A stretch of DNA of 64,000 nucleotides from an uncultured Gemmatimonadales bacterium (lineage in GTDB: Bacteria; Gemmatimonadota; Gemmatimonadetes; Gemmatimonadales; GWC2-71-9), in NCBI GenBank assembly GCA_963739455.1, contig CAVUAK010000001.1:1568001-1632000 (forward strand), in the 5' to 3' direction. A program made the translations under genes and the position numbers. Below, in pieces: positions 1 to 64,000 of the stretch. The notes beneath the pieces are model-generated. The model made no database searches and was not told the origin of the DNA. It worked only from the letters and a program-made list of their open reading frames with translations. The first letter of the stretch is position 1. The number at the start of each line of letters is the position of its first letter.

Positions 1-1142
1 GCGAGCTGGTCGCCCGTGTGATCGCGGCCCAGCGAGGCCTGTCCAGGAAGTGCCTCGTCCTCGACCTCGACAACACCTTGTGGGGTGGTGTCATTGGTGA
101 CGATGGGATCGGCGGCATCGTGCTCGGTGAGGGGAGCGCGGCTGGCGAGGCACACCTCGCACTGCAACGCTACGCACGTCAGCTGGGCGAGCGCGGCGTC
201 ATCCTGGCCGTTTGTTCGAAGAACGATCCCGCCATCGCAGAGGCAGCTTTTCGCGATCATCCAGAGATGGTGCTCCGGCCGCCAGATATCGCGGTCTTCA
301 TCGCCAACTGGGAAGACAAGGCGGTGAACCTGAAGCGCATTGCGTCTCGACTTAACATCGGCGTAGACAGCCTGGTGTTTGTCGACGACAATCCGGCGGA
401 GCGCGACCGGGTCAGGCAGGCCCTGCCGGGAGTAGCGGTGCCAGAATTACCGGGCGACGTTGCGGGCTATGTGGGGTGTCTCGCCGATGCAGGCTACTTC
501 GAGGCGATTGCCTTTACCACCGAGGATCGGCAGCGCGGCGAACAGTATGCGGCCAACGCAGCTCGAGAGGCCCTGCTGGAAGCATCAGGCGGCATGGATG
601 AATACCTGCGCAGCCTGGGCATGGTACTCGATCATGCACCCTTCCAGGATGTGGACCAGGCGCGCGTTACGCAGCTCATCAACAAGACGAACCAGTTCAA
701 CCCCACGACGCGCCGCTACACCCAGAAGGAGGTATCCGCGGTGAGCACGTCGCCCGTTTGCCTCACACTGCAGCTTCGGCTCGCTGATCGCTTCGGTGAC
801 AACGGGCTCGTGAGTGCACTCATCCTGCAGCCAGTCGAGGGACGGGCGGATCAACTCGAGATGGATACGTGGGTAATGAGTTGCCGCGTCTTCGGGCGCC
901 AACTCGAGCACGAGGCGCTCAACCTGGTGGTGGAAGCGGCCCGTTCGCGCGGCGTAACGTCACTGCGGGCGGACTACCTGCCCACCGCAAAGAACGGCGT
1001 CGTCGGCGACCTTTACCCCCGTCTCGGGTTCCGCGCCGCGGAAGAGGTCGCGTCCGTCCCCGGGGCGACCCGGTGGGTCCTGGATCTGGCGGACTATGCG
1101 CCGCTGTCCAGTCACATTGTTCGCAAGGGAGGCTCGGCATGA
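1..1142 (+). CDS. fkbH: FkbH-like HAD-IIIC phosphatase/glyceryl-ACP transferase (5' truncated by window edge)
   Basis: Motifs LDLDNTLWGG, CSKN, FVDDNPAER, NKTNQFN, DRFGDNG, MSCRVFGR. The frame is open to the left edge. Confidence 0.93.
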   Translation, partial: ELVARVIAAQRGLSRKCLVLDLDNTLWGGVIGDDGIGGIVLGEGSAAGEAHLALQRYARQLGERGVILAVCSKNDPAIAEAAFRDHPEMVLRPPDIAVFIANWEDKAVNLKRIASRLNIGVDSLVFVDDNPAERDRVRQALPGVAVPELPGDVAGYVGCLADAGYFEAIAFTTEDRQRGEQYAANAAREALLEASGGMDEYLRSLGMVLDHAPFQDVDQARVTQLINKTNQFNPTTRRYTQKEVSAVSTSPVCLTLQLRLADRFGDNGLVSALILQPVEGRADQLEMDTWVMSCRVFGRQLEHEALNLVVEAARSRGVTSLRADYLPTAKNGVVGDLYPRLGFRAAEEVASVPGATRWVLDLADYAPLSSHIVRKGGSA

Positions 1143-1381
1143 CGGAGGAGGAGATCCTTGAACGTTACACCCGGCTCTTGCGCGACCTGCTCTTGGATGA
1201 GTCGATCGTGCTGGGGATGGACACGCGCCGCGATGAAGTCACAGGCTGGGATTCCTTCACCTACGTGAACTTCATTGTCACAGCGGAAATGGAGTTCGGT
1301 GTCAAGTTCGGGGTGGCGGAGATCGAGTCCTTTGAGAATGTCGGTGCGGTCGTTCGCCGCACCAAGGCATTGCTCGGCTGA
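1139..1381 (+). CDS. Acyl carrier protein (80 aa)
   Basis: MTEEEILERY...GWDSFTYVNF...EFGVKF. ATG overlaps the fkbH stop (ATGA), and its own stop overlaps the MBOAT start. Confidence 0.9.
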   Translation: MTEEEILERYTRLLRDLLLDESIVLGMDTRRDEVTGWDSFTYVNFIVTAEMEFGVKFGVAEIESFENVGAVVRRTKALLG

Positions 1382-62900: not shown

Positions 62901-64000
62901 GAACGATCGATCTCCACCGGAATGCTGGTGGCATTCCAGTCGCGCACCATGCGCCGCTGTTCCTCCTCGGCCAGGAGGGGCTGCTTTCCGAGCGGAAGGT
63001 GGCGCGACGTGCGGAAACCGCGCGCCAATTGCGACAGACGCTCGCTGAGCGAGGCCGCCTGTTCCGTGGTGAGGCGCGCCGTGTTGTACTGCAGGCGCCC
63101 GCGGCTCCCATCCTCCGACACAACGAACGTCACTTCGCTTTCGCCTCGCGGCGCAACCAGGTCAGGGTCGGCTGCCACCACGAGTGCGATCGGCATCGCC
63201 GCCGGTATGTGCCGCAGCGTCGGCTGCCGCAGGACGAGGTCGGCCGAATAGGTAAGTCGCTCTCGTACCGCCGACAGGTCGCGTTCTACCATCTCGACTA
63301 GTTCACCGAGATGGCCCTCGAACGGCACTGACAGGCGCACCGGGACCGCCCCGGCGTACCATCCCTTCACCTCTTGAATCAGCGAGCGCAGTGCCGGACC
63401 CTCATAGGTCACGCTGAACTCCGCCCGTCCACGCAGTCGCGCGAGCAGTCCGGCAATGAGCGCGAGGGCCACATCCGCAGGGGCATGACCCGGAACGATG
63501 GGAAGGGCGGAGAGGTCGAGCGCCAGTGATTCCATGCCGCCGTCTGCTGTATTGCCGCGCTCCGGAAACGGGAGGGTGCCTGGCTCACAGTGCACCAGGT
63601 GCCGGATCCACCAACCCTCATGCGCCGCGACGCGCGCGTCGATGGCACTGATTGACGCTGAGAGCGACTCCGGCAGCCGCAGGATATCTCCCTCGCGCAG
63701 GTTGAAGCGCAGCGCGGCCTCACGCGCTGAGAGCGCCTCGCCCGCGAGGGTGCGGAACCTCGGGATGCGTACATCCTCGCTGCCCGTTGCCACCGTCAGG
63801 CCGTCATCGGCAACCGCCAGCAACGTTCCTGGTGCTGCACCGGAGGTGCGCTCCAGTACCTGCAGTTGCGGCACCGCCAATGGCACGCCGCCAGTCACCG
63901 CCTTGGCAAGGCAGATAGGGTTGGCGTACTGGCCATAGTCGAGTCCCCGAACCAGCGCCGATAGCTCCGCTGCTGGCCGGCGCCAGTCCAGCGCCCCCGC
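59936..64000 (-). CDS. NRPS: formyltransferase C-terminal domain - linker - adenylation domain interrupted by a MupA/Atu3671-type luciferase-like monooxygenase - PCP (5' truncated, frameshifted)
   Basis: Right edge reads [26 protein letters not shown] domain: [67 protein letters not shown]. Confidence 0.9.

Follow-up and report, generated by a model that had tools for sequence, protein, structure and literature searches.

The nearest described relative of the assembly line analyzed here is a four-gene cluster of an NRPS, a PKS, one glycosyltransferase gene and one for a phosphopantetheinyl transferase (PPTase), which is present in 28 of 57 roseobacter genomes and whose product is given as uncharacterised (PMC4337385). 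Within the freely accessible papers searched, neither a product nor a mutant of a cluster of this type was found. This orphan cluster is reportedly attributable to Martens et al. Further points of comparison are the formylation module of LgrA, the monooxygenase of PuwE and the glycine module of MtaG, a related known system. RkpA and WcbR are FAS-like PKSs of capsule loci, which are not known to include a glycine NRPS or a monooxygenase and which serve as a model for a glycan built on a PKS product. Finally, MBOAT–SGNH relays are represented by DltABCDX and PatAB, and an FxYxxF-type shuttle motif is described for PatA and DltX in PMC12148441.

We analyzed a window of 64,000 nucleotides (the whole stretch of DNA under study, C1:1568001-1632000) from a genome of 3.6 Mb, probably of Gemmatimonadales, that is 84% complete. 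Pfam and NCBIfam scans of the window and its flanks place it inside a Wzx/Wzy glycan locus of ~125 kb, whose glycan genes span about -30 kb to +97 kb in window coordinates. This locus encodes four Wzx flippases, two Wzy/ligase-like proteins, Wza, Wzc and a priming phosphoglycosyl transferase, in addition to a Wzm/Wzt pair, many GT2 and GT4 glycosyltransferases, deacetylases, AsnB amidotransferases, DegT, a FemAB-like protein and AT3. The principal features are the following:

1..1142, + strand: FkbH-family glyceryl loader of acyl system 1 (TIGR01686 291.8, cut-off 146.7; FkbH_N); the frame starts 786 bp left of the window
1139..1381, + strand: ACP1, stand-alone carrier of system 1 (WDSF motif; NF009104 E 1.4e-6, under cut-off)
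1381..3009, + strand: MBOAT1 (PF03062, 83 bits; WHG histidine, C-terminal FLYWQF shuttle motif)
5168..15131, strand not assigned: GT4, Wzx flippase, GT4, Wzm/Wzt ABC pair, GT2 (Pfam)
24286..30240, - strand: GT2, AsnB-like amidotransferase, Wzx flippase, GT4 (Pfam, NCBIfam)
34405..35463, - strand: SGNH-type protein of system 2 with an N-terminal membrane anchor (PF13472 E 1.6e-4, under cut-off; GSS and DFDH motifs; hydrophobic start)
35460..37448, - strand: acetoacetate-CoA-ligase-family loader of system 2 (TIGR01217 605.7, cut-off 520.9)
37445..37708, - strand: ACP2, DltC-like carrier of system 2 (LDSL motif; PF00550 E 1.4e-4; NF003464 E 9.5e-10)
37695..39149, - strand: MBOAT2 (PF03062, 82 bits; WHG histidine, C-terminal FIYAQF motif)
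39162..48453, - strand: Wzx, UDP-sugar dehydrogenase, AsnB amidotransferase, polysaccharide deacetylases, flavin oxidoreductase, GT2; several frameshifted
48689-49366, - strand: EpsI (over the TIGR02914 cut-off)
49320-50273, - strand: exosortase (TIGR02602 148.9, cut-off 105.6)
50416-50757, - strand: small PEP-CTERM protein of 113 aa (PF07589, over cut-off), ahead of the exosortase gene
51024..52309, + strand: LMW tyrosine phosphatase and EntD/PptT-type PPTase, the latter at 51629-52309 (4PPT_N and ACPS)
52329..53618, - strand: SAM-dependent methyltransferase, optional, with one ortholog among all loci searched
53581..59928, - strand: PKS (KS-AT-KR-DH-ACP-TE), catalytic motifs all present
59936..64000, - strand: NRPS (formyltransferase, C-domain C-lobe, Gly-type A domain split by a MupA/Atu3671 monooxygenase, PCP), start at 64585
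L001:12576-15258 (window +72.6 to +75.3 kb, 8-11 kb past the right edge): MBOAT3 (His, FLYFQF) and an SGNH-motif partner, with no carrier or loader of their own

Other regions of the window hold a cytochrome c and a PQQ-type beta-propeller protein on the opposite strand (3006-5246; TIGR04528-like, under cut-off), two membrane proteins, of which the second carries a DCC1-like thiol-disulfide domain (30698-32844), and a badly fragmented segment with RmlC, a DRL oxidoreductase, glucose-1-P cytidylyltransferase, CDP-glucose 4,6-dehydratase and a PIG-L deacetylase (18409-24222), the fragmentation of which probably reflects assembly errors.

The NRPS runs from 64585 to 59936 and thus starts 585 bp beyond the right window edge; a tRNA-Val called by ARAGORN at 63684-63772, on the strand opposite its coding region, is probably spurious. 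Its formyltransferase has invariant Asn, His and Asp residues and a fold like those of ArnA and Fmt (two-subdomain type), and the condensation domain that follows consists of the C-terminal lobe, the catalytic lobe being missing (probability 97%). The A-PCP part has the LgrA formylation module (PDB 6MFZ) as best PDB match, and the monooxygenase inserted in the A domain (TIGR04020 443.9, cut-off 244.5) matches PuwE best (PDB 6KET, E 6e-110). In contrast to LgrA and PuwE, the formyltransferase is of the ArnA/Fmt type and fused to a C-domain C-lobe, and a single NRPS module hands over to a PKS. Among the homologous loci, the A-domain pocket reads DILQxG-M-[IV]WK in 54 of 78 rows, which we take to be a glycine code, and 18 more show DIL and M[IV]W with an unreadable middle. 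Both carriers of the pair were recognized by PF00550 (PCP, E 3.6e-13; PKS ACP, E 1.6e-11), and the TE carries Ser and His motifs. The AT is closest to PDB 5YDA and ZmaA (4QBU), which presumably use unusual extenders; since the AAHS motif is common to all three, malonyl as extender is not certain.

Aligned collinearly, the NRPS and the PKS share domain order and motifs with the Roseobacter cluster, and a PPTase of the same family is adjacent. Full-length identity between the NRPS of one congener and alphaproteobacterial copies is 41-43%. Here the NRPS precedes the PKS, inside an xrt/epsI locus with three MBOAT–SGNH relays, whereas Ruegeria ANG-S4, the isolate in PMC4337385, has the order PKS-GT2-NRPS-PPTase (L077). 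The cassette GT2 and an SGNH-fold partner, which accompany the pair elsewhere, are both missing from this genome. Judged by domain order and motifs, the NRPS-PKS pair is therefore already known, as the orphan Roseobacter cluster without the GT2, and it works like this cluster, although the absence of the cassette GT2 keeps us from counting it as a full member.

Within the genus, the NRPS was found in 9 of 11 congeners and in none of 49 other genomes of the order; in the two congeners without a match (G002 and G005) the contig begins at the adjoining femAB-like gene, so that a copy may have been missed. A GTDB scan confirmed at least 588 relatives, the best 80 of which (not a random sample) were used as loci and span Alpha-, Beta- and Gammaproteobacteria, Myxococcota, Planctomycetota, Acidobacteriota, Chloroflexota, a Salinivenus and Gemmatimonadota. 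The closest named homolog among the matches listed belongs to a Gemmatimonadales MAG (55%). Environmental carriers that are in culture include Ruegeria ANG-S4, a Leisingera strain, Caldimonas manganoxidans, Hyphomicrobium zavarzinii and Novosphingobium. A luciferase-like monooxygenase is present in 71 of these best 80 loci, and seven of the nine others end early at a contig edge.

For the neighbourhood analysis, 11 of the 71 monooxygenase-bearing loci were dropped (flank < 4 kb), so that 60 were counted, 31 of them from Rhodobacterales as judged from record titles. Glycan genes were found near 52 of these 60 loci by HMM, a count that is partly circular and includes kin that are not independent, and near 43 of 60 using seeds from this genome alone. 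The corresponding values for random stretches of the same genomes were 5/35 and 4/35 (40 stretches, minus four that were short and one that was itself an NRPS-PKS). Per 10 kb, homologous loci hold 1.76 glycan genes versus 0.13 in controls, an about 13-fold difference. Glycan neighbours accompany 30 of the 31 Rhodobacterales loci and 22 of the remaining 29, and none of five formyl-NRPS loci without the monooxygenase-PKS layout. Among the eight glycan-negative loci, L073 turned positive on extension and L070 has EpsI, whereas L057, L084 and L109 still showed no glycan gene after extension; L074, L078 and L112 were scored on unextended flanks, the latter two differing in module order. Even on extended flanks, the full pair stands without a glycan gene in two Chloroflexota loci and one Ramlibacter locus, and a third Chloroflexota contig runs on into another NRPS. 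The Chloroflexota loci L057, L084 and L047, in which the complete pair has no glycan genes nearby, form a natural contrast group. Other formyl-NRPS variants were seen at L126-L127, L125 (G008), L061 and L078, two of them in glycan loci, and some carry pairs of alpha/beta-hydrolases similar to exosortase-A-associated hydrolases 1 and 2 (under cut-off).

A distinct GT2 clade, rhamnosyltransferase-like (TIGR01556 E 8.5e-13, under cut-off), lies immediately after the PKS in 40 of the best 80 loci and is present in 23 of 35 further genomes; it was found neither in this 84%-complete genome (best score 21 bits) nor in the nine congeners. In addition, an unannotated protein encoded in 26 of 71 loci folds like SGNH esterases/acyltransferases, PatB among the matches. 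This SGNH-fold family (L049:10509-11369 and 25 other loci) co-travels with the cassette in Alpha- and Betaproteobacteria. Membrane acyltransferase genes lie near 3 of 71 loci (one MBOAT, two AT3).

Taken together, these relatives, most of which have sugar-polymer genes nearby in many phyla, argue that the product is likely hung on a polysaccharide rather than released as a free antibiotic. The initial annotation had placed the product on the glycan, a glycolipid or PEP-CTERM glycoproteins instead of proposing a diffusible metabolite, and the predicted co-occurrence with glycan genes was borne out across many phyla; the Chloroflexota and Ramlibacter exceptions qualify this reading, and the association is one of neighbourhood. 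We consider it probable, reading function from sequence, that the NRPS-PKS makes a short formylated and oxidised acyl group from glycine and one extender, which would be put on the glycan in the cytoplasm. In such a scheme, the locus PPTase would prime the PCP and ACP, the A domain would load glycine and the formyltransferase would N-formylate the tethered glycine, no peptide bond being expected since the formyltransferase stands in for the catalytic half of the C domain. The monooxygenase may then hydroxylate an alpha-carbon of a tethered thioester. A 2-hydroxy acyl has likewise been proposed as the product of the PuwE monooxygenase on a tethered substrate in PMC4219810. The KS would add one extender, possibly not a malonyl unit given the AT, and the KR and DH would yield a 4-formamido-hydroxy-butyryl or, if dehydration occurs, a -butenoyl unit. 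The TE may finally hand this unit to an NDP-amino-sugar or a lipid-linked repeat unit before the Wzx flip; attachment in the cytoplasm is favoured because an MBOAT or AT3 adjoins so few of the homologous loci. The absence of both the cassette GT2 and the SGNH partner leaves the transfer step here with no named enzyme.

Two candidate additions to this pathway were rejected. The methyltransferase is no core step, as its labels in three congeners came from a seed overlapping the PKS end. A supply of hydroxymalonyl extender by FkbH-ACP, an idea taken from the AT likeness to ZmaA, does not fit the distribution of the genes (FkbH in 2/11 congeners, NRPS in 9/11); moreover, FkbH adjoins an MBOAT, and scans of the window and flanks gave no acyl-ACP dehydrogenase.

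The two other carrier-based systems resemble MBOAT–SGNH relays. The SGNH-motif ORF of system 1 lies upstream of FkbH and has the motifs GNS and DQSH, so that GxS and DxxH motifs occur in the partners of both systems, a Pfam match, under cut-off, being restricted to that of system 2. The MBOAT histidine, C-terminal FxYxxF motif and SGNH-motif partner of DltABCDX and PatAB, as described in PMC12148441, are found in all three pairs here; in systems 1 and 2, a carrier and a loader of their own, as in Dlt, go together with an MBOAT-fused motif, as in PatA. Their loaders are FkbH and an acetoacetate-CoA ligase instead of the D-Ala ligase of Dlt, and the Dlt pathway proper (DltA, DltB and a separate DltX) was not recovered, TIGR04091 scoring 179.9 and 146, below 375. 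MBOAT relays that have a carrier, as systems 1 and 2 do, may already be listed in a 2023 paper on the Dlt mechanism. FkbH is encoded in 2 of 11 congeners and the acetoacetate ligase likewise in 2 of 11, indicating that the three acyl systems are separate modules gathered in one locus; systems 1 and 2 are predicted to be separate, optional relays adding glyceryl and acetoacetyl-type esters outside the membrane. Beside an AT3 gene, at L002:5438-8654 (window +85.4 to +88.7 kb), HMG-CoA lyase and 3-oxoacid CoA-transferase A/B genes, all exceeding NCBIfam cut-offs, lie inside the glycan locus; the set occurs in G006 and G010 too. It could be a source of acetoacetate or acetoacetyl-CoA for glycan acylation, although not a private supply of system 2, which G010 lacks.

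The components listed by the initial annotation are all in place, comprising four Ser-bearing phosphopantetheine carriers (ACP1, ACP2, PKS ACP and NRPS PCP), two MBOATs within the window (PF03062), and xrt, epsI and PEP-CTERM genes that all pass family cut-offs; the sequence past the right edge, to which it had also pointed, holds the NRPS start and the third MBOAT with its SGNH-motif partner. Its view of three carrier-protein acyl systems as one set does not hold, given their separate inheritance. The PPTase it noted lies in the window, and a homolog flanks the NRPS-PKS in 36 of 71 loci (from the best 80 of at least 588 relatives), but it is not the only one: an AcpS-type PPTase is encoded elsewhere on the same contig. 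A single PPTase therefore need not load all four carriers, and the stand-alone ACP1 and ACP2 are probably loaded by AcpS.

Several other readings of the NRPS-PKS product were weighed against a glycan substituent, chief among them a free metabolite and an aglycone or primer. That the TE releases a free small molecule (e.g. a formamido-butenolide or a hydroxy acid), merely co-located or co-regulated with biofilm glycan genes, is in our view unlikely. The intact TE with its Ser and His motifs might just release the product by hydrolysis, glycan-free loci exist, and variants L112, L121 and L125 continue into additional C-A-PCP modules, all of which suit a free molecule; the glycan-gene enrichment over several phyla and the co-travelling GT2 clade speak against it. 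As initially annotated, the window has no efflux pump, resistance gene or siderophore receptor (no MFS, RND, TonB or resistance family match among 73 frames scanned, the sole ABC pair being the Wzm/Wzt-type pair at 10674-12706), and a missing exporter is weak evidence against a free metabolite. Rather doubtful, too, is a product acting as aglycone, primer or anchor, whose hydroxyl is sugared by a glycosyltransferase and on which a glycan or small glycoconjugate is built. The GT2 right after the TE in half of the best 80 loci fits this; a single extension, however, gives a short polar unit that would anchor poorly in a membrane, the locus encodes a phosphoglycosyl transferase to prime undecaprenyl, and this lineage lacks the GT2.

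It is very unlikely that the acyl group leaves the PKS ACP in this lineage through the carrier-less MBOAT3 and its SGNH partner, to be added outside the membrane. MBOAT3 has the His and FLYFQF motifs and no loader or ACP of its own, and in 6 of the 10 NRPS-bearing genomes of the genus it is found no more than about 10 kb from the NRPS; carrier-less MBOAT–SGNH pairs normally use acyl-CoA, according to PMC12148441, elsewhere an MBOAT adjoins 1 of 71 loci, and none was found in G004 or G009 (77% and 64% complete). Still less credible are PEP-CTERM proteins handled by the exosortase as the specific acyl target. Exosortase, EpsI and a PEP-CTERM target are all present, next to the PPTase and PKS, and the translation has the Cys, Arg and His of the exosortase catalytic triad, the exosortase score remaining under the XrtA-specific cut-off (156.5 < 208). 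Yet xrt/epsI flank just 2 of 71 homologous loci (from the best 80 of at least 588), and PF07589 has two matches genome-wide, both short, one being the ORF at 50416-50757. The exosortase link is thus local, and PEP-CTERM glycoproteins, a target named in the initial annotation, are unlikely as a general function. Least probable of all is that the NRPS-PKS is a decayed pseudogene, as its 13 net frameshifts in 11 kb (NRPS 3, PKS 10, relative to the intact G008 copy) might suggest. Eleven of the 13 are single-base insertions, and none lies at a position shared with other assemblies, which also speaks against programmed or shared frameshifts; the main segments keep 74-97% protein identity to the G008 copy, and Wzc, AsnB, UDP-sugar dehydrogenase, deacetylases and MBOAT3 are frameshifted in the same manner. 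Because the insertions are unshared and ordinary nearby genes are equally broken, the frameshifts are likely assembly errors. Genome G003 carries the NRPS-PKS twice (C1 and C7); the first half of one copy contains 25 frameshifts, and the bin may combine two strains.

Overall, we favour a glycan substituent as the product of the NRPS-PKS. More speculatively, and with little confidence, the pair conserved in at least seven phyla might supply an alpha-oxidised unit derived from N-formylglycine (a masked aldehyde or enoyl) as a reactive cross-linking or adhesive substituent of Wzx/Wzy polysaccharides, its transfer enzyme being swapped by lineage while the core stays fixed. The present genome adds that the NRPS-PKS core persists without the cassette GT2, and that two relays joining a carrier to an MBOAT with a fused motif occur within one locus. 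Roseobacter-type loci have been counted as secondary-metabolite clusters and have remained orphan for years; should the product be attached to a polysaccharide, it would escape screens of culture extracts. The unit proposed here, consisting of glycine, a formyl group, one extender and an oxidation, is testable, and, if the proposal is true, assembly lines of a widespread class would form part of cell-surface chemistry.
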